A DNA stretch of 61,215 bases, counting the filler. It is 9 parts of 9 records of this genome, joined end to end, with 100 filler letters (N's around TTAATTAATTAA, not from the genome) between each part and the next. Parts side by side here need not be neighbours in the genome. Positions count along the whole stretch, not along the records: positions 23,333 to 30,500 come from SRR31147125_131238; 8 more parts are not named here. One strand, written 5' to 3'. The position numbers and the translations under genes are program-made. Below the pieces are notes generated by a model that saw nothing but the letters and a program-made list of their open reading frames with translations, did no database searches and was not told where the DNA came from. Positions 7,773-55,483 of the stretch are shown piece after piece. Numbering within the stretch: the first letter of the stretch is position 1; each line of letters begins with the position of its first letter.

Positions 7773-7872
7773 NNNNNNNNNNNNNNNNNNNNNNNNNNNN
7801 NNNNNNNNNNNNNNNNTTAATTAATTAANNNNNNNNNNNNNNNNNNNNNNNNNNNNNNNNNNNNNNNNNNNN
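7773..7872. other. Artificial contig spacer
   Basis: 44 N + TTAATTAATTAA (stops in all six frames) + 44 N. Confidence 0.99.
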
Positions 7873-13018: not shown

Positions 13019-13118
13019 NNNNNNNNNNNNNNNNNNNNNNNNNNNNNNNNNNNNNNNNNNNNTTAATTAATTAANNNNNNNNNNNNNNNNNNNNNNNNNN
13101 NNNNNNNNNNNNNNNNNN
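13019..13118. other. Artificial contig spacer
   Basis: N44-TTAATTAATTAA-N44. Confidence 0.99.
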
Positions 13119-18119: not shown

Positions 18120-18219
18120 NNNNNNNNNNNNNNNNNNNNNNNNNNNNNNNNNNNNNNNNNNNNTTAATTAATTAANNNNNNNNNNNNNNNNNNNNNNNNN
18201 NNNNNNNNNNNNNNNNNNN
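18120..18219. other. Artificial contig spacer
   Basis: N44-TTAATTAATTAA-N44. Confidence 0.99.
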
Positions 18220-23232: not shown

Positions 23233-23332
23233 NNNNNNNNNNNNNNNNNNNNNNNNNNNNNNNNNNNNNNNNNNNNTTAATTAATTAANNNNNNNNNNNN
23301 NNNNNNNNNNNNNNNNNNNNNNNNNNNNNNNN
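23233..23332. other. Artificial contig spacer
   Basis: N44-TTAATTAATTAA-N44. Confidence 0.99.
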
Positions 23333-23448
23333 CAAAATGGCCGGTCTTAGAACCAACCCCAACTTATTCCTTAAAGTCCATGTGGGCATTTCAAAATTGA
23401 AACCCAAAATACGGATCTTTTTCAATACGATATAGGTGTGCCGAAAAG

Positions 23449-25284
23449 GTGAACAATTCGAAAATTTCAATAAAAACCGCAGCAATCGCAACCTGCCTGA
23501 ACATTTTTTTGACCATCGTCAAATTCATCCTTTACTCGTTATCAGGAAGTCTGGCAGTTCTTGCTGAAGCATGGCATAGCCTTACGGATATCGCAACCAG
23601 CGTACTGGTCTTGATCGCTGTCAAACGCTCAAGTCTCAAAGCTGAAAAACAGAGGAATGATTCTAACGGTTTTGAAAACGGACTGAAATCAAAAGATGTC
23701 AACGGGGTCAAAACAGTCGTCAGTAAATTCGAAGTGTTTATCTCCCTGGGAATCGGGGGGATGCTCATGATCGTGGGAGGCGGACTTTTAAGAACTTTTT
23801 TTAAGGCTGAGGCCTATGTCGTTGAAAATGCATTGATATCCGGAATTCTATTCATTTTCTTTTCTTTTTGTTCCCATTTTGTCTCAAGATTTGAAACCGT
23901 TATCGGTAAGAAAGAGGGATCCCTTGGACTTGTTTCCGATGGGATGCATGCCCGGGCCGACATGGCAGCCTCTTTGATTACGGGAATCGCCCTTATTCTC
24001 TGCTCCATGGGGCTCAACCTCGATCGTTGGGTTGCGGGGATTATCGCTCTATTTATTTTGCTCTATGCATTTGAAACCCTCATCCATGTGACCTTATTTT
24101 ATCTCAGGGACGATAAAAAGGATCCGGATCATTCCAATTCCATCGACCAGTCCGGTACAATCAGTCAATCTAATGGCATCGGTCAACCCAATATCGTCAG
24201 AATGACGGCACTATTGTTGGATAAATCCCTCTTCGGCAAAGCGATCTCCAAAATAAAATCCTTTCTGGAAAACAAACTCGGCAATACCCCGGCATTGAGG
24301 TGTTTTTTTCTTGCTCTCCGGTGGTTCCCTGTTATGGCTGTTTTTTCTCTTTACGGTTCCACGTTTGTCTATCGCGTCGATGTCAATGAAGAGGCCCTGG
24401 TGGAACGATTCGGAAAACCGGTGATGCGTTCCAATCCGGTTCAGCCGGGGTTGCATGTCAAACTTCCCTGGCCATTTGATAAAGTGCGAAAACGAAAGAC
24501 AAAACGGATTGAAGAGATTCATATCGGCAACCAATCTGCAGATCGAACCGCGCCGCTGTTGTGGACAAGGCAGCATGGGATGGAAGAGCCGTTTTTAAGC
24601 GGAGACAACAACCTGTTTTATCCCTACATCACCCTGCACTACCGGGTGAATGATATCTACGACTTTTTGTATAAAAACAGAGATGCCAAAGCGCTTGTCA
24701 AAGCAGTGGCTCACCAGATCACGACCGCTCAATTTGCCGGGAAAAAGTTTTATGACATTGCAGGGAAAGAGAGAAACCAACTGGAAGCGGATATTATTGA
24801 AACCCTCCAAATCAGATTGGATGCCCTTCAATGCGGTGTCGAGATCGTCTATCTCTGTTTAAAGGACATCCACCCGCCCATCACCGTTGCCGACTCCTTT
24901 GAAAAAGTGATCGCCGGATTTCAGGAAAAACAGAATGTCATCAATCAGGCCATGGGGATCAGAAACCAAATTTTGCCTGAAACAAGGGGCAAAGCTGCTC
25001 AAGAGATCGAGCAGGCATACAGTTACATCATTGAAAAAACTAAAAAGACAGACGGAGATGCAAAACGGTTTGAGCTCTCCCGACCTGAAACGCAACAGGA
25101 AAAAAACATTATGATGTCAAAAACCTATTTTCAGACCATGCAGGATGCCCTGAAGGGAAAAACCAAATTCATCATCGATCCCAAGGCGGGCGAGCCCGAT
25201 ATCTGGATCGAAACCAAAAGTTTCCCTGATTATTTCTCTGAAGAAGAGGATGATGATGCGTTTCATGAGGGAGATGAGCTGTAA
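23449..25284 (+). CDS. Fusion protein: CDF (cation efflux) transmembrane domain + HflK-type SPFH domain
   Basis: N-half SGSLAVLAEAWHSLTD and SDGMHARAD (CDF HxxxD sites). C-half EEALVERFGK..PGLHVKLPWPFDKV, LSGDNN, DIHPP..VADSFEKV, ILPETRGKA (HflK-like). Confidence 0.9.
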   Translation: MNNSKISIKTAAIATCLNIFLTIVKFILYSLSGSLAVLAEAWHSLTDIATSVLVLIAVKRSSLKAEKQRNDSNGFENGLKSKDVNGVKTVVSKFEVFISLGIGGMLMIVGGGLLRTFFKAEAYVVENALISGILFIFFSFCSHFVSRFETVIGKKEGSLGLVSDGMHARADMAASLITGIALILCSMGLNLDRWVAGIIALFILLYAFETLIHVTLFYLRDDKKDPDHSNSIDQSGTISQSNGIGQPNIVRMTALLLDKSLFGKAISKIKSFLENKLGNTPALRCFFLALRWFPVMAVFSLYGSTFVYRVDVNEEALVERFGKPVMRSNPVQPGLHVKLPWPFDKVRKRKTKRIEEIHIGNQSADRTAPLLWTRQHGMEEPFLSGDNNLFYPYITLHYRVNDIYDFLYKNRDAKALVKAVAHQITTAQFAGKKFYDIAGKERNQLEADIIETLQIRLDALQCGVEIVYLCLKDIHPPITVADSFEKVIAGFQEKQNVINQAMGIRNQILPETRGKAAQEIEQAYSYIIEKTKKTDGDAKRFELSRPETQQEKNIMMSKTYFQTMQDALKGKTKFIIDPKAGEPDIWIETKSFPDYFSEEEDDDAFHEGDEL

Positions 25285-26177
25285 TGAAATATACATGTAT
25301 CGGTATCGGTCTGTTTGCCGTGATAATCGGTTCTCTCTTCATGTGTACCCTTACGGTGTCTGAAAGCGAATATGTGGTATTGACGCAATTTGGAAAACCT
25401 TCCGGAACCATCGAGCGTGCCGGACTCTATTTCAAGCGCCCCGGATTTCTTGAAACAGCCAATCGAATCGACCGTCGGACGTTTGTCAACTCAACCCAGC
25501 CCATACAGCTGTTATTGGGAGATAAAAACCCCATTGTCCTGACCTGCTATGTGTGCTGGCGCGTCCATGATCCGCTTCTCTATTTCCAATCGTTGACCAA
25601 CACCGTCATCGCAAACCAAAAGCTTGGGGATATGGTCAATTCACAGCTGGGAAGTGTGCTGGGAGATTTTGAATTGAAAAATATTATCAACACAGATCCC
25701 CATGAAGTGAAAATATCTGAGATTGAACATCGGATTTTGACGAACATCGATGAGAGTACCAAAGAAAAATACGGCATTGAAATTGTCAAAATGGGTATTC
25801 AGGAGATTAAATATCCTTCCATTGTGGCGGATGCCGTTTATAACCGGATGAAATCGGAAAGAGAAAAGGAAGCGATGAAATATCGGGCAGAGGGCCGGGA
25901 GGAAGCAACGAAAATTGAGGCAAAAACCGATCGGGAGGCCACCGAAATCCTGGCAAAAGCTTATAAAAAATCGCAGATTCTCAAAGGGGAAGGGGATCGT
26001 CAGGCTTTGAAAATCTATTCCCAATCCTATGGCAAAGACAATGAGTTTTTTGAGTTCATGAAATCCATGGAGCTCTATAAAGAGATTTTGAAACAAAAAA
26101 GTACCCTGATTTTGTCTGCGGATTCGGAACTGTTCAAATATCTGAAAGATCCCCATGGAAACCGAAAAAATGACTAG
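25284..26177 (+). CDS. hflC: HflC-type SPFH protein
   Basis: Single N-terminal TM, VVLTQFGK, AVYNRMKSERE, YRAEGREEA, GEGD..A..IY, EFFEFMKSMELY, LILSADSELFKYL. Confidence 0.9.
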   Translation: MKYTCIGIGLFAVIIGSLFMCTLTVSESEYVVLTQFGKPSGTIERAGLYFKRPGFLETANRIDRRTFVNSTQPIQLLLGDKNPIVLTCYVCWRVHDPLLYFQSLTNTVIANQKLGDMVNSQLGSVLGDFELKNIINTDPHEVKISEIEHRILTNIDESTKEKYGIEIVKMGIQEIKYPSIVADAVYNRMKSEREKEAMKYRAEGREEATKIEAKTDREATEILAKAYKKSQILKGEGDRQALKIYSQSYGKDNEFFEFMKSMELYKEILKQKSTLILSADSELFKYLKDPHGNRKND

Positions 26178-27195
26178 CAGCCATGGCAGCCCGTCTACCC
26201 CACCCTCCCATGGAAGATCCGAAACCAAAGATCGAGGGGGCTCACAATTGAACGACAAGGATAATATCAAAAAAGAGTTTCGGAACACGCTGAACAGCAC
26301 GATGTCGTTCATTCGGATCCTTTTGATTTTGCTGGCCGTCCTTTATCTGCTCTCGGGCATATACTCGGTTTCCTCAAATGAAATCGGGGTATTGCAGCGA
26401 TTCGGCAGGGTCCTGGACGACACCATCCCGCCGGGTATTCATTATGCGTTTCCCCGGCCCGTGGATCGTGTCACCAAAGTCCCGATTCGAATCGTGGACA
26501 GGCTGCTGATCAATGACCTTTCATCAGAAGGGGCATCTACCCGCTCTTCCTACTGCTTGACCGGCGACAATAACATTGTAACGATACAGTGTGTCATCCA
26601 GTACAATATCAGTGATCCTTTCGACTATCTTTTCAAAGTCGCAGAGCCGAGAAAGATGCTTCGAAGCATGGCCGTCAACACCATGATTCAATGTCTGGCC
26701 CGGATGCCCATCGATCATGCCCTGACAAAGGGGAAGCTCGAAATTGCCAACACCATTAAATCCGGCGTTCAACAGCGTCTGGATCAAACGGAATGCGGCC
26801 TGAGCGTCTCTTTTGTGGAGCTTCGGGATTTAACGCCTCCGATTCATGTGCAGCCCTATTTTTCAGATGTGGTCAATGCGGGAATCGATAAAGAAAAAAT
26901 GATCAACCAGGCCCATTCATACAGAAACGAGAGAATCCCTGCCGCCAATGCCCAAGCCAACCAAATTGTACAAAGTGCAGAAGCCTATAAAACAGAAGTG
27001 GTCTTAAAGGCTGAGGGTGAAACCCATCGTTTTGAATCCTTTTTGGAGCGGCTGGAAAATCAAGGCGCTTCCGTCCGAAGAATGATCTATGTCGACACGA
27101 TGAAAGAGATCATGAAAAGAGTTGGTGCCAAGCATGTCGTCACCCGGAATGAAGAGGGCAAAACGCCGGCTCACCTGAAGCTGTTCAGCAAGTAG
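26170..27195 (+). CDS. hflK: HflK-type SPFH protein
   Basis: LSGIYSV..NEIGVLQRFGR, PGIHYAFP.PVD, LTGDNNIV, AEAYK..VVLKAEGETHRF. Confidence 0.9.
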   Translation: MTSSHGSPSTPPSHGRSETKDRGGSQLNDKDNIKKEFRNTLNSTMSFIRILLILLAVLYLLSGIYSVSSNEIGVLQRFGRVLDDTIPPGIHYAFPRPVDRVTKVPIRIVDRLLINDLSSEGASTRSSYCLTGDNNIVTIQCVIQYNISDPFDYLFKVAEPRKMLRSMAVNTMIQCLARMPIDHALTKGKLEIANTIKSGVQQRLDQTECGLSVSFVELRDLTPPIHVQPYFSDVVNAGIDKEKMINQAHSYRNERIPAANAQANQIVQSAEAYKTEVVLKAEGETHRFESFLERLENQGASVRRMIYVDTMKEIMKRVGAKHVVTRNEEGKTPAHLKLFSK

Positions 27196-27240
27196 GAAGT
27201 GATACCAAATAATTAGACGATTAACCATCTCTAAAAGAAG

Positions 27241-28241
27241 GTGCATATGAATAACGGATCTCCACTCACTCGCTCAGTAATCCTCTATTTTTTCCTGCTC
27301 CTGGTCGGACAATCGTATTTTCTCCACGCGCCCGAACCAACGGCAAATGCCGGGCAAAATCCATTCAGGCCTGCAGCCGTTGACGATGGTGGCGTCAACC
27401 AAGAGAGCCAAGACGCATTTCGAACCGGAAGTCCGACTCATGACAATGGCATCAGCACCTACGGCTCTTGGCTCATGCGCATCGCCTTGTTGCAGCAAAA
27501 ACTGAAACTCAAGATGACGCGGTGGGTGGGGGATGTCAAACGCGGCGAGACCTTTCACCCCCTCATGATGCTTCTGCTGGTTTCCTTTGGATATGGCGCC
27601 GTGCATGCGGCAGGTCCCGGACACGGCAAAGCCGTGTCCACGTCCTATATTTTGTCATGCAAACCATCGCTGCAAAATGGCCTGCTCTTCGGCAGTTTGA
27701 TTGCCCTGTTTCACGGGCTCTCCGGCGTGGTCTGTGTGATGGGGCTCCATTTCATCCTTCGAAAAGGGTTCAGCAATACCTTGAATCAAGTGTCCGATGT
27801 GACTCAAGTGGTCAGCTATGGCCTGATTACCCTGCTTGGAACCGCCATTTTAGTGACGCACATTCGAGAATATTTCCGCTCCGGAAAACAAATAGAAGAA
27901 AAAAGGGGGCCTTTCCCTTTGTTGAAACGACGAAAAGACGCCTGATCTTCTGGGCCTTTATCGTGGGAATGGTCCCCTGCCCCGGTGTCGTGACGGTGAT
28001 GCTCTTTTGTCTTTCCATGGGACTTCCCCTGCTTGGCGTTTTTTTGGCCACGGCCATCTCCATGGGCATGGCATTCACCCTCTCTCTCACCGTGATCATG
28101 GTGATGATGGGAAAAGCAGGCACCGTGTTTGCGACGTCGCAGAAAAACCGTCAGCGGATAGAACTGGTGACCGGCGTCTTGTCAGGGGGATGTATTGCGG
28201 CTCTGGGGCTCATCCTGTTTATGACGGCACTTCATGGATGA
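27241..28241 (+). CDS. NicO/RcnA-family (HoxN/HupN/NixA-like) Ni/Co transporter (one frameshift near 27900)
   Basis: YGAVHAAGPGHGKAV motif in the first frame and GMVPCPG in the second; multiple TMs. Confidence 0.85.
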
Positions 28242-28340
28242 TAGATGAATCAATTTTTTCCCTTTGCCCGGTCTTCTGATCTATTTGACGACTTTTCTTC
28301 TTGACGGCTTTTCTTCAAAAAATCTATGATTTCTTAAAAC

Positions 28341-28392
28341 ATGAACTTTAGTTCATTTTTACCTTGACATAACATGAACTAAAGTTCATATT
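28341..28392 (+). promoter_or_regulatory. Sigma70 promoter with two palindromic repressor operators
   Basis: ATGAACTTTAGTTCAT (28341-28356) and ATGAACTAAAGTTCAT (28374-28389) flank TTGACA (28364-28369). CATATT lies 17 bp downstream of the -35. Confidence 0.8.
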
Positions 28393-28475
28393 ACAGAAAA
28401 ATGGGGCAACTGCCGCTGAATAGAAAACGCCACACCCCTTTGCAAATAATAAACACTCATTGGAGGCCCAAAAAA

Positions 28476-29087
28476 ATGACGACCATGACATCAACCATCA
28501 ACGATCAAAAATCCACCTCTCCCCTAACAAAACCGCACAAGGTATGTCCCTGGTGGCTGTGCTATTTTATGGACAACCCGCTTCGTCGAATCAAACATCC
28601 CCCGGAGAAAGTTCTCGGTCCCTATGTATCCCATGGAATGAAAGTAATGGATTTCGGCTGCGGATTCGGGCACTTCTCCATAGGAATGGCAAGAATGGTC
28701 GGCGATACCGGTCATGTCATCGCTGCCGATGTGCAACAAAAAGTGCTCAATAAAACCATGTCCCGTGCTGCCAAACAGGGCGTGGAAGGACGAATCACCC
28801 CCTTATTGTGTAGTGGAGACGGCATTGGCCACCCTTTGGAATTACACTTTATCCTGGCATGTAACTCCATCCACGAAACACCGGATATTACCAAACAGCT
28901 CAAGGAGATGTTTGCCTTACTCGTTCCGGGTGGTCGATTTTTGTTGATGGAACCTGCCGGTCATTTGAAAGCCCATGAATTTGACGGCGAAGTGTCTTTG
29001 GCCCTTCAAGCGGGCTTCAAGGAGCTCGAGCGACCTCAGATATATAAAGAGATGACTGTGTTGCTTGAAAAACCTGTGGTTGAATAA
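28476..29087 (+). CDS. Class I SAM-dependent methyltransferase
   Basis: HKVCPWW..DNPLRR N-terminus, MDFGCGFG SAM motif, LVPGGRFLLMEP; GGAGG RBS. Confidence 0.9.
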   Translation: MTTMTSTINDQKSTSPLTKPHKVCPWWLCYFMDNPLRRIKHPPEKVLGPYVSHGMKVMDFGCGFGHFSIGMARMVGDTGHVIAADVQQKVLNKTMSRAAKQGVEGRITPLLCSGDGIGHPLELHFILACNSIHETPDITKQLKEMFALLVPGGRFLLMEPAGHLKAHEFDGEVSLALQAGFKELERPQIYKEMTVLLEKPVVE

Positions 29088-29111
29088 TTGTGAACTGTGA
29101 ATTAGAATGGC

Positions 29112-29143
29112 GCGTCTTGTTATCTCACCTGGTAACAAGACGC
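29112..29143. terminator. Intergenic hairpin (terminator or mRNA stability element)
   Basis: GCGTCTTGTTA-N10-TAACAAGACGC perfect 11-bp stem; no clear U-tract. Confidence 0.45.
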
Positions 29144-29174
29144 ACCATGACGTTCAACAATTGAAGGATATCGT

Positions 29175-29789
29175 ATGAATTGGACAAACGGAGAGTATGC
29201 TCCTAAACAGAAACGGGCGGATGAGAAAAAGGGACTGATTTTTGACGCCGCCCTGACCCTTTTCGGTACCCATGGGTATCATAACACCACGGCCAAGGCC
29301 ATTGCTGCCGAGGCCGGTGTGGCCACCGGCACTTTTTATCGCTACTTTCGGGATAAAAAGGCGCTGTTCATGGCGGTATGTCATCGAATGGAGTCTGAGA
29401 TCGGTGGGCGAATTTTCGGGTTCGGCGAAAAGATGCGGCAGGAGGGGCACTCCGAACAGGAAATTCTGGGACAATTGATTCGATTTTCCATTCAAGTCCA
29501 CCATCGCCATAAAGCGTTTCACCGGGAGGTGCTTGCCATGCAGATCACGGATCCGGATGTGGCGGTTTGGGGTGCAGAGCGTGAAAAGCGGATCCTTGCC
29601 GCCCTTCTGGAGTTCCTCAAAGGGATGAAGGGCAGTTTTCGGATCACCGACCTGGAGGCGGCCTCGGAGCTCATCTATTACTCAATTGAAGAGGTCTCCC
29701 ACCGAGCCGTGCTGTTTGATTCTCCAGTGGGTGAAGAGCGATTGATCAATGCACTTCAGGAAATGTTGGAGCGCTACATGTTTGATTAA
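29175..29789 (+). CDS. TetR/AcrR-family transcriptional regulator
   Basis: IFDAALTLF..GYHNTT..IAAEAGVATGTFYRYFRDK HTH. Confidence 0.95.
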   Translation: MNWTNGEYAPKQKRADEKKGLIFDAALTLFGTHGYHNTTAKAIAAEAGVATGTFYRYFRDKKALFMAVCHRMESEIGGRIFGFGEKMRQEGHSEQEILGQLIRFSIQVHHRHKAFHREVLAMQITDPDVAVWGAEREKRILAALLEFLKGMKGSFRITDLEAASELIYYSIEEVSHRAVLFDSPVGEERLINALQEMLERYMFD

Positions 29790-30500
29790 AATCCAAACGT
29801 ACCGGTAACACTCTCTTCATCATATGCCGTGGCATCCCGGATCACCTGGGAAACGGCACTCAAGCTGTAGTTATGAAGCATATGAACGTTCTTCCTATGT
29901 TTCTTACCCAGCTTTTTCACCACGGTACAGGCGGTGTGGCTGTTGCAGTTGACCGGGCAGAGTACCATATCAGCCCGTTTCATACGATCTTCCAGAGCTT
30001 TGGCTCCTTTTTTCATATAGCCGTCATGGTAGTCGAAAATTCCGCCGCTGCCTTCGATGAACTCCCGATAAACCGACTCCATCCGGGAGATTCCCCCCAC
30101 GATCAATATCCGCTTTTGACACAAATCAAAGACCGGACAGGATTCATCGCATGAACAGGAATCGTTGTTCCCACATTTACTGAGGGCAATGACATGGCCG
30201 ATCACCTTTTTGGCTTCCTCTCTGACCTGATCGGTCATCTCCTTTTGCAATTTCAGCTCTACAGCCAGCTGCTCTCTTTTTTCACTCAAAGAGTGGAGCT
30301 GAGCTTTTGCATCAGCATAGGATTCCTTAACAAGCGCCAGTGTGTGTTCCAGCGCCCTGTTTTTCTTTTCAAGCGTCACCACTTCGGGAGTGTCTCGCTG
30401 ATCCCGCAGTGTTGCCTCCAGTGACTCGTTTTGCTTTCTCAGGAATTCACTTTCTTTTTTCAGGCGATCCATCTCCACTGCCATCCCACGGTTCTCTTTT
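29786..30500 (-). CDS. Coiled-coil + DUF2325 domain protein, 5' truncated
   Basis: Coiled coil, a Cys cluster, then RILIVGG...HDG...ADMVLCPVNCNSHTAC..VKKLGKK. Confidence 0.8.
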
Positions 30501-30600
30501 NNNNNNNNNNNNNNNNNNNNNNNNNNNNNNNNNNNNNNNNNNNNTTAATTAATTAANNNNNNNNNNNNNNNNNNNNNNNNNNNNNNNNNNNNNNNNNNNN
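30501..30600. other. Artificial contig spacer
   Basis: N44-TTAATTAATTAA-N44. Confidence 0.99.
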
Positions 30601-38943: not shown

Positions 38944-39043
38944 NNNNNNNNNNNNNNNNNNNNNNNNNNNNNNNNNNNNNNNNNNNNTTAATTAATTAAN
39001 NNNNNNNNNNNNNNNNNNNNNNNNNNNNNNNNNNNNNNNNNNN
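38944..39043. other. Artificial contig spacer
   Basis: N44-TTAATTAATTAA-N44. Confidence 0.99.
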
Positions 39044-45141: not shown

Positions 45142-45241
45142 NNNNNNNNNNNNNNNNNNNNNNNNNNNNNNNNNNNNNNNNNNNNTTAATTAATTAANNN
45201 NNNNNNNNNNNNNNNNNNNNNNNNNNNNNNNNNNNNNNNNN
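45142..45241. other. Artificial contig spacer
   Basis: N44-TTAATTAATTAA-N44. Confidence 0.99.
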
Positions 45242-55383: not shown

Positions 55384-55483
55384 NNNNNNNNNNNNNNNNN
55401 NNNNNNNNNNNNNNNNNNNNNNNNNNNTTAATTAATTAANNNNNNNNNNNNNNNNNNNNNNNNNNNNNNNNNNNNNNNNNNNN
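55384..55483. other. Artificial contig spacer
   Basis: N44-TTAATTAATTAA-N44. Confidence 0.99.

Follow-up and report, generated by a model that had tools for sequence, protein, structure and literature searches.

What does an SPFH cage do to the membrane proteins that sit inside or beside it? The question remains open despite many recent structures, and it is raised in a direct form by a locus in a 61,215-nucleotide stretch of DNA (hereafter the window), in which a metal transporter and an HflK-type subunit are encoded as a single protein. The locus occupies a piece of about 7.2 kb (positions 23333-30500) and comprises four genes on one strand. The first (23449..25284, + strand, 611 aa) fuses the membrane domain of a cation diffusion facilitator (CDF) to an HflK-type SPFH protein. 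It is followed by an HflC-type gene (25284..26177, +, 297 aa), a second, free HflK-type gene (26155..27195, +, 346 aa) and a NicO-type gene (PF03824; 27241..28241, +) that is frameshifted in the window. An earlier interpretation made from the letters alone (the sequence-only reading) had described these four co-oriented genes and their close packing, and open reading frames (ORFs) together with Pfam and NCBIfam matches agree with it. The packing can be read directly from the DNA: the fusion stop and the HflC-type start overlap as TAATG at 25282-25286, the HflC-type stop TAG (26175-26177) lies inside the free HflK-type gene (start codon ATG at either 26155 or 26170), and the NicO-type gene starts 45 nt past the free HflK-type stop.

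The first three genes (the triad) are interpreted here, with confidence a little better than even, as a paralogous HflK/C-type SPFH scaffold that would tether an active CDF exporter, with free and fused HflK-type subunits sharing the K positions and the scaffold replacing the C-terminal domain that the CDF part has lost. A natural and widely conserved fusion of this kind identifies a scaffold client outright, in this case a metal exporter with an intact transport site, and its built-in stoichiometric partners offer a route to how a scaffold alters the behaviour of a transporter.

The fusion protein and its transport site

In the fusion protein, Pfam assigns Cation_efflux (PF01545) to residues 13-211 (E 2.4e-15) and Band_7 to residues 309-503 (E 6.4e-18), and with the NCBIfam CDF model TIGR01297 the protein reaches 83.4 bits, above the cut-off of 82.35. 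The CDF membrane domain (residues 1-223; 23449..24117, +) retains its transport site and is without the cytoplasmic C-terminal domain: no Pfam family matches residues 212-308, and the structural model shows only a linker there. This model, made with AlphaFold2 from a 95-sequence alignment (pLDDT 83.7, pTM 0.63), places the six CDF membrane helices at residues 3-32, 35-73, 93-119, 128-156, 159-186 and 192-223, followed by a linker of about 57 residues (224-280) that is partly disordered, contains two short helices and is of low confidence at 230-247. The HflK-type part (24289..25152, +) then begins with a seventh membrane helix (281-306) and continues into the SPFH and coiled-coil region (307-568), modelled as SPFH strands at 307-472 and long helices at 478-544 and 549-568, before a disordered acidic tail. 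A profile search of the PDB with the fusion matches HflK (7vhp_E, 3e-46) and YiiP/FieF (2qfi_A, 1.8e-11), and Foldseek returns the same two families, with HflK chains 7vhq_E and 9cz2_XA as the best matches of the model (E about 7e-14) and YiiP also recovered (8f6k_B at 8e-06, and 8f6h_B). When the CDF part is searched as a profile, E. coli YiiP/FieF is recovered (3.6e-10); as a single-sequence query against the PDB, the same part gave 0 matches.

Five residues of the CDF part, H43, D47, D164, H167 and D171, are invariant in 95/95 aligned fusions and in 67/67 locus translations. In a HMMER alignment H43, D47, H167 and D171 fall on D45, D49, H153 and D157 of YiiP (2qfi_A), which we take to be the YiiP transport site. 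The likeness to YiiP/FieF and other CDF exporters (PDB 2qfi, 3h90, 8f6k) extends over the six-helix membrane domain, the aligned site and the fold. However, the fusion differs in two respects: its first site residue is a histidine, giving an H-D/H-D set of the kind typical of zinc-type CDFs, and the linker and an HflK protein stand in place of the cytoplasmic C-terminal domain. Judged from these residues, the CDF half looks active as a transporter. It is very improbable that the CDF part is only a degenerate membrane anchor, or that the gene order has no functional meaning. The absence of the cytoplasmic C-terminal domain and the variability of the gene neighbourhoods would be compatible with such decay, but the four transport-site residues are invariant in all 95 and all 67 sequences at 33-53% identity, the triad is complete in every locus with enough DNA (see below), and its genes overlap. 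A link to magnetosomes was also considered and was rejected because MamB (44 bits) and MamM (29 bits) score far under cut-offs of 350.

CDF transporters have cytoplasmic termini and export to the periplasm. With the N-terminal membrane domain ending on the cytoplasmic side, the seventh helix would carry the SPFH part across the membrane, so that this part is predicted to be periplasmic, as in E. coli HflK.

Conservation and paralogy of the triad

A protein search yielded 108 homologous clusters at 33-52% identity, 104 of which carry both Pfam domains; matches to the CDF part alone were limited to two short ones, possibly fragments from contig ends. In a first scan of genomes 16 loci were recovered, and in 16/16 the fusion is followed by an HflC-type gene and then by a second HflK-type gene. 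A profile was then built from 94 of the 108 matches together with the window sequence, the 14 left out being near-duplicates or of odd lengths, and a scan with this profile gave 79 species-level loci. The triad is complete in 71 of them, and the other eight (L041, L045, L074, L079, L087, L088, L091 and L101) end at a contig edge. According to record titles, 22 of the 79 loci belong to Thermodesulfobacteriota and 15 to Planctomycetota, 22 are unlabelled, and the remaining 20 are spread over 12 other phylum labels; the one cultured strain among the carriers is Desulfobacter curvatus DSM 3379 (L056). Judged from gene content and order across these loci, the comparison demonstrates a conserved unit consisting of the fusion, the HflC-type gene and the free HflK-type gene, inherited together across many phyla. 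In the literature, supplements aside, no paper was found that deals with a CDF-HflK fusion or with what such triads do, and the words 'transporter', 'cation' and 'fused' have 0 occurrences in the text of Hinderhofer 2009 (PMC2636767), again with supplements aside.

The two partners of the fusion are readily assigned to the HflK/HflC family. The HflC-type protein matches Band_7 (E 2e-24) and scores 190.5 bits with the hflC model TIGR01932, above its cut-off of 134.4, and the free HflK-type protein matches Band_7 (E 3.9e-22) and scores 186.6 bits with the hflK model TIGR01933, above its cut-off of 159.4. The sequence-only reading had taken these genes for a paralogous set, and this was examined in five relatives' genomes, which do not include the window's own. 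All five hold the CDF triad together with a separate two-gene hflK-hflC pair, and all five encode FtsH, in one copy in four genomes and in two copies in the fifth, never on the contig of the triad. A tree of SPFH proteins was calculated from 77 rows with IQ-TREE and SH-aLRT support. It included the three proteins of the window, tblastn-derived pieces from the 16 first-pass loci (L001-L016), the five canonical pairs, E. coli HflK and HflC, and rows from further triads of two other kinds described below, namely two triads of the second kind (one of them without a third gene in the ORF call) and three of the third kind. All C-type proteins fall on one side of the tree (support 100), where the triad HflC-type proteins form their own clade (A_C, 100) apart from a clade of canonical HflC with the E. 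coli protein (94). Among the K-type proteins, the fused HflK parts form one clade (A_fusK, 99), the free HflK-type proteins (A_K2) join the free HflK of triads linked to an ATPase (99) rather than canonical HflK, and canonical HflK groups with E. coli HflK in a separate clade (94). Each of the three triad subtrees divides into the same sub-clades, which would be expected if the triad is inherited as a whole. Several rows of the second and third kinds sit on long branches, and their position in the tree is uncertain. Within the limits of a sequence comparison, the triad is shown by these results to be a paralogous SPFH set distinct from the housekeeping hflKC of the same genomes. The earlier proposal is thereby borne out in the relatives' genomes, in which the triad is neither the only hflKC nor grouped with the FtsH-associated copies.

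Among the nearest known counterparts is the E. coli HflK/HflC-FtsH complex (PDB 7vhp, 7wi3, 9cz2, 9paw). Both systems have adjoining HflK-type and HflC-type genes, and their products are built alike, with a transmembrane helix at the N-terminus, an SPFH domain and helices of a coiled coil, and with matches at the level of both profile and fold. However, the triad has three subunits instead of two, one of which bears a six-helix CDF transporter; its subunits lie in clades of their own beside a housekeeping pair (supports 94-100) and are not orthologues of the E. coli proteins on this tree; and it has neither the hfq-hflX context nor a genetic link to ftsH. This comparison bears on an alternative in which the triad is an FtsH adaptor that recruits the housekeeping FtsH. 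The CDF part would then either be degraded as a substrate under regulation or sense metal and adjust the zinc-dependent protease accordingly. Such a role is in line with the nearest solved relatives being HflK and HflC chains from FtsH complexes (7vhp, 7wi3, 9cz2), with two of the three subunits exceeding their equivalog cut-offs, and with the presence of FtsH in all five genomes. We nevertheless regard it as unlikely, given that the extra triads are not accompanied by extra FtsH (the copy numbers being those given above), that the subunits fall outside the clades of E. coli HflK and HflC, and that FtsH lies within 3 kb of the triad in only 1/79 loci (L038), where it is on the opposite strand beside tilS. 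The sequence-only reading had also noted that no ftsH or hflX is present on the contig. Pfam and NCBIfam scans of piece 23333-30500 agree that both are absent, but the statement carries no weight as evidence, since the piece is too short for such an absence to be informative.

Proposed scaffolding, sibling triads and possible roles in metal handling

In the scaffold reading favoured here, what would be a functional CDF metal exporter sits at the N-terminal, cytoplasmic end of one of the two HflK-type subunits. Together the three proteins would form a ring or cage like that of HflK/C, with an HflC-type subunit at every other position and either a fused or a free HflK-type subunit at the positions between. 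Co-assembly with the fused subunit would pin several CDF domains in one membrane patch, and in this way the scaffold may substitute for the lost CDF C-terminal domain in oligomerisation and regulation. The module would serve divalent transition-metal homeostasis, with Zn, Fe, Co and Ni as candidate metals. Precedents for SPFH rings that hold or border membrane proteins are found in human stomatin-aquaporin 1 (PDB 9zd2), in QmcA-YbbJ (8z5g) and in erlin1/2, all of which are among the fold matches. However, in these the client is a separate protein, whereas here it is joined covalently to a scaffold subunit.

The association with metal transport is not limited to the CDF fusion. Relatives' genomes that carry the CDF triad hold further SPFH triads in the same K-C-K order, of two kinds (L017:2277-6465, L020:3128-6387; L017:12764-18000, L018:1496-7560, L019:3838-10095). 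One kind starts with a fusion of an ArsP_1-type permease and the SPFH part, and NCBIfam identifies this permease as an SO_0444-family Cu/Zn efflux transporter (NF033936, 338 and 362 bits, cut-off 300). The other kind starts with a gene whose product has an unassigned membrane domain, about 300 residues long, and the triad adjoins a heavy-metal ATPase of the P1B type (TIGR01525, 535-557 bits, cut-off 346). At least 539 stretches matched a profile of this ATPase-linked kind; among the best 80 loci, the full triad is present in 73 and the ATPase adjoins it in 62, usually right past the third gene. One of the ATPase-linked triads is in a Pseudomonadales genome (L169). The broader claim of the sequence-only reading, in which SPFH operons are devoted to metal transport, is supported by these siblings, which are fused to an SO_0444-type permease or adjoin a P1B ATPase.

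The nearest published case, a possible counterpart of the ATPase-linked kind, comes from Pseudomonas aeruginosa, as far as can be told from the excerpts of the published work drawn on here. PA2437, PA2438 and PA2439 have HflC/HflK-family annotation and are upregulated 14.4-, 10.6- and 9.0-fold in a znuA mutant (PMC4542158, Table 2), and the PA2439-PA2437 genes precede the P-type ATPase gene hmtA (PA2435) (PMC4542158). The PA2437-PA2439 proteins increase on zinc depletion (PMC11761036), and Zur binds the PA2439-PA2437 promoter (bioRxiv 10.1101/2021.05.28.446167). A 2026 study named PA2439-PA2437 PaFlo5-7 and reported only slight effects of their deletion on biofilm and virulence (PMC13086221). 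According to the excerpted part of that study, growth, motility, biofilm, oxidative stress and virulence were assayed in the deletion mutant, a metal assay not being among them, and the words 'ATPase', 'HmtA' and 'Zur' are absent from the text of the study (PMC13086221). By gene order and description only, PA2439-PA2437 and HmtA resemble the studied locus in having three SPFH genes in one operon with a metal transporter, and their gene order is that of the ATPase-linked sibling triads. The studied triad likewise shows the order K-type, C-type, K-type together with a metal transporter, as judged by gene order and overlaps, with the transporter fused. The difference is that in P. aeruginosa the transporter is encoded as a separate P1B ATPase gene and is not a fused CDF. 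The P. aeruginosa triad was not among the best 80 of the at least 539 matches to the ATPase-linked profile.

Since three unrelated families of metal transporters have been recruited to the same type of triad, the comparison suggests a general and overlooked link between SPFH scaffolds and metal homeostasis. If true, this link would explain why P. aeruginosa induces three SPFH genes under zinc scarcity. A far-reaching extension, which we put forward as a long shot, is that HflK/HflC-type triads are a general metal-handling device that captures a pump either by fusion (CDF, SO_0444 permease) or within an operon (P1B ATPase) and forms a periplasm-facing chamber, so that metal would be released into, or taken from, a confined space on the nanometre scale instead of the open periplasm. 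A related but more specific alternative for the CDF triad, corresponding to the metal-handling compartment suggested in the sequence-only reading, is that the scaffold closes off a periplasmic chamber above the exporters, in which metal is kept locally, either to load secreted metalloproteins or to avoid sulfide. The predicted topology is favourable, as it sets the SPFH domain and the coiled coil in the periplasm above a transporter of a type that exports there, and many carriers are metagenome-assembled Thermodesulfobacteriota and Planctomycetota, for which sulfidic anoxic settings are assumed. However, no conserved periplasmic metal-binding partner adjoins the triad, and we consider this chamber improbable.

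Several observations weigh against the reading of the triad as an exporter scaffold. The fusion scores 134.5 bits with the HflK equivalog model TIGR01933, under the cut-off of 159.4, and the SPFH tree is a quick version only, calculated in IQ-TREE quick mode with no support values other than SH-aLRT. The gene neighbourhood has also been of limited help. It was analysed from ORFs of at least 80 aa obtained with a crude caller; the 552 within 5 kb of the triad were clustered, and annotation covered the 24 recurrent neighbour clusters and, for the remainder within 3 kb, 262 representatives, with at least 3 kb available on both sides in only 40/79 loci. Most neighbours are unrelated housekeeping genes, and another metal transporter occurs within 3-5 kb in only 12/79 loci and any metal-related gene in 22/79, so the context says little about metal or about the direction of use. 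Companions do recur in the clade of the window: of the first-pass loci, 5/16 have FeoB close to the triad, 3/16 a DtxR-type repressor and 2/16 DUF1007-NicO, and the FeoB and DtxR-type companions belong to the uptake or limitation type. Companions of this type (Feo, DtxR, NicO-DUF1007 and, in Pseudomonas, Zur) fit an exporter awkwardly, and this is the main point that the scaffold reading leaves unexplained.

Neighbouring genes and composition of the window

Across the 79 loci no neighbour family is found in more than 11. The most frequent are histidine kinases (11/79), followed by Ser/Thr kinases (8/79), FeoB, ABC exporters and NUBPL/Mrp-type ATPases (7/79 each), and Metallophos-5'-nucleotidase (5/79), while NicO and DtxR-type repressors are each near the triad in 3/79; MgtE, FecCD, ZnuA, a TonB-dependent receptor and an ABC-3 permease are single cases. 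These frequencies speak against the suggestion of the sequence-only reading that the NicO transporter is a partner corralled by the cage. NicO is a recurrent local companion in the clade of the window, a lineage-specific addition to the operon and no part of its core. In two loci of relatives (L002:7723-9804 and L008:7523-9889), DUF1007 and NicO lie directly 5' of the fusion and share its strand, and FeoA and FeoB are close by. A DtxR-type repressor also lies directly 5' of the fusion in both loci, on its strand in L002 and on the opposite strand in L008. The NicO gene of the window has no adjoining DUF1007 gene. In an unlabelled genome (L089:11737-17619), a 1961-aa ORF with SpvB, TcdB-middle and RHS domains lies directly 3' of the triad and is probably unrelated to it.

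The NicO match of the window is split over two frames (27241-27945 and 27468-28241), with the break at an A6G5 run at 27899-27909. The N-terminal piece matches PF03824 at 1.1e-13 over profile positions 2-115 of 287, and the C-terminal piece at 0.0017 over positions 191-284. The public run X1 contains 99% of the sampled words of the stretch. A Logan contig of this run (word depth 98) spans 23340-30490 with no substitutions and has an additional A behind position 27898; with this base the two frames become a single one of about 333 codons. As run X1 may be the source of the window DNA, this contig is not independent. In the relative L002, both halves of NicO lie within a single frame. From the additional A in the Logan contig and the single frame in L002, the frameshift is probably a homopolymer error of the assembly. 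The alternative view, that the gene is a real pseudogene, is less probable because the Logan contig carries the additional A. The same contig has a second additional A behind position 28316, in the spacer past NicO, which is another probable homopolymer miscall.

The window as a whole consists of nine pieces joined by N-runs around eight TTAATTAATTAA six-frame stop linkers (7773-7872, 13019-13118, 18120-18219, 23233-23332, 30501-30600, 38944-39043, 45142-45241 and 55384-55483), and any synteny across these joints is artificial. The other eight pieces carry housekeeping genes and are without ftsH, hflX or an SPFH gene. Upstream of the operon the window holds only 115 nt of DNA, in which a 6-2-6 palindrome, TTTCAAAATTGAAA, is located at 23389-23402, 60 nt 5' of the fusion start; a palindrome scan of 22 triad upstream regions found no common operator. 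Three genes follow NicO on the 3' side, encoding a SAM methyltransferase (28401-29087), a TetR regulator (29175-29789) and, on the minus strand, a DUF2325 protein (29786-30484). Two 16-base palindromes (ATGAAC-4 nt-GTTCAT; 28341-28356 and 28374-28389) lie directly 5' of the methyltransferase and TetR genes and overlap sigma-70-like promoter matches; they resemble a TetR-type operator belonging to a separate transcription unit. L002 and L009 also have relatives of the DUF2325 gene, at a distance of several kb from the triad.

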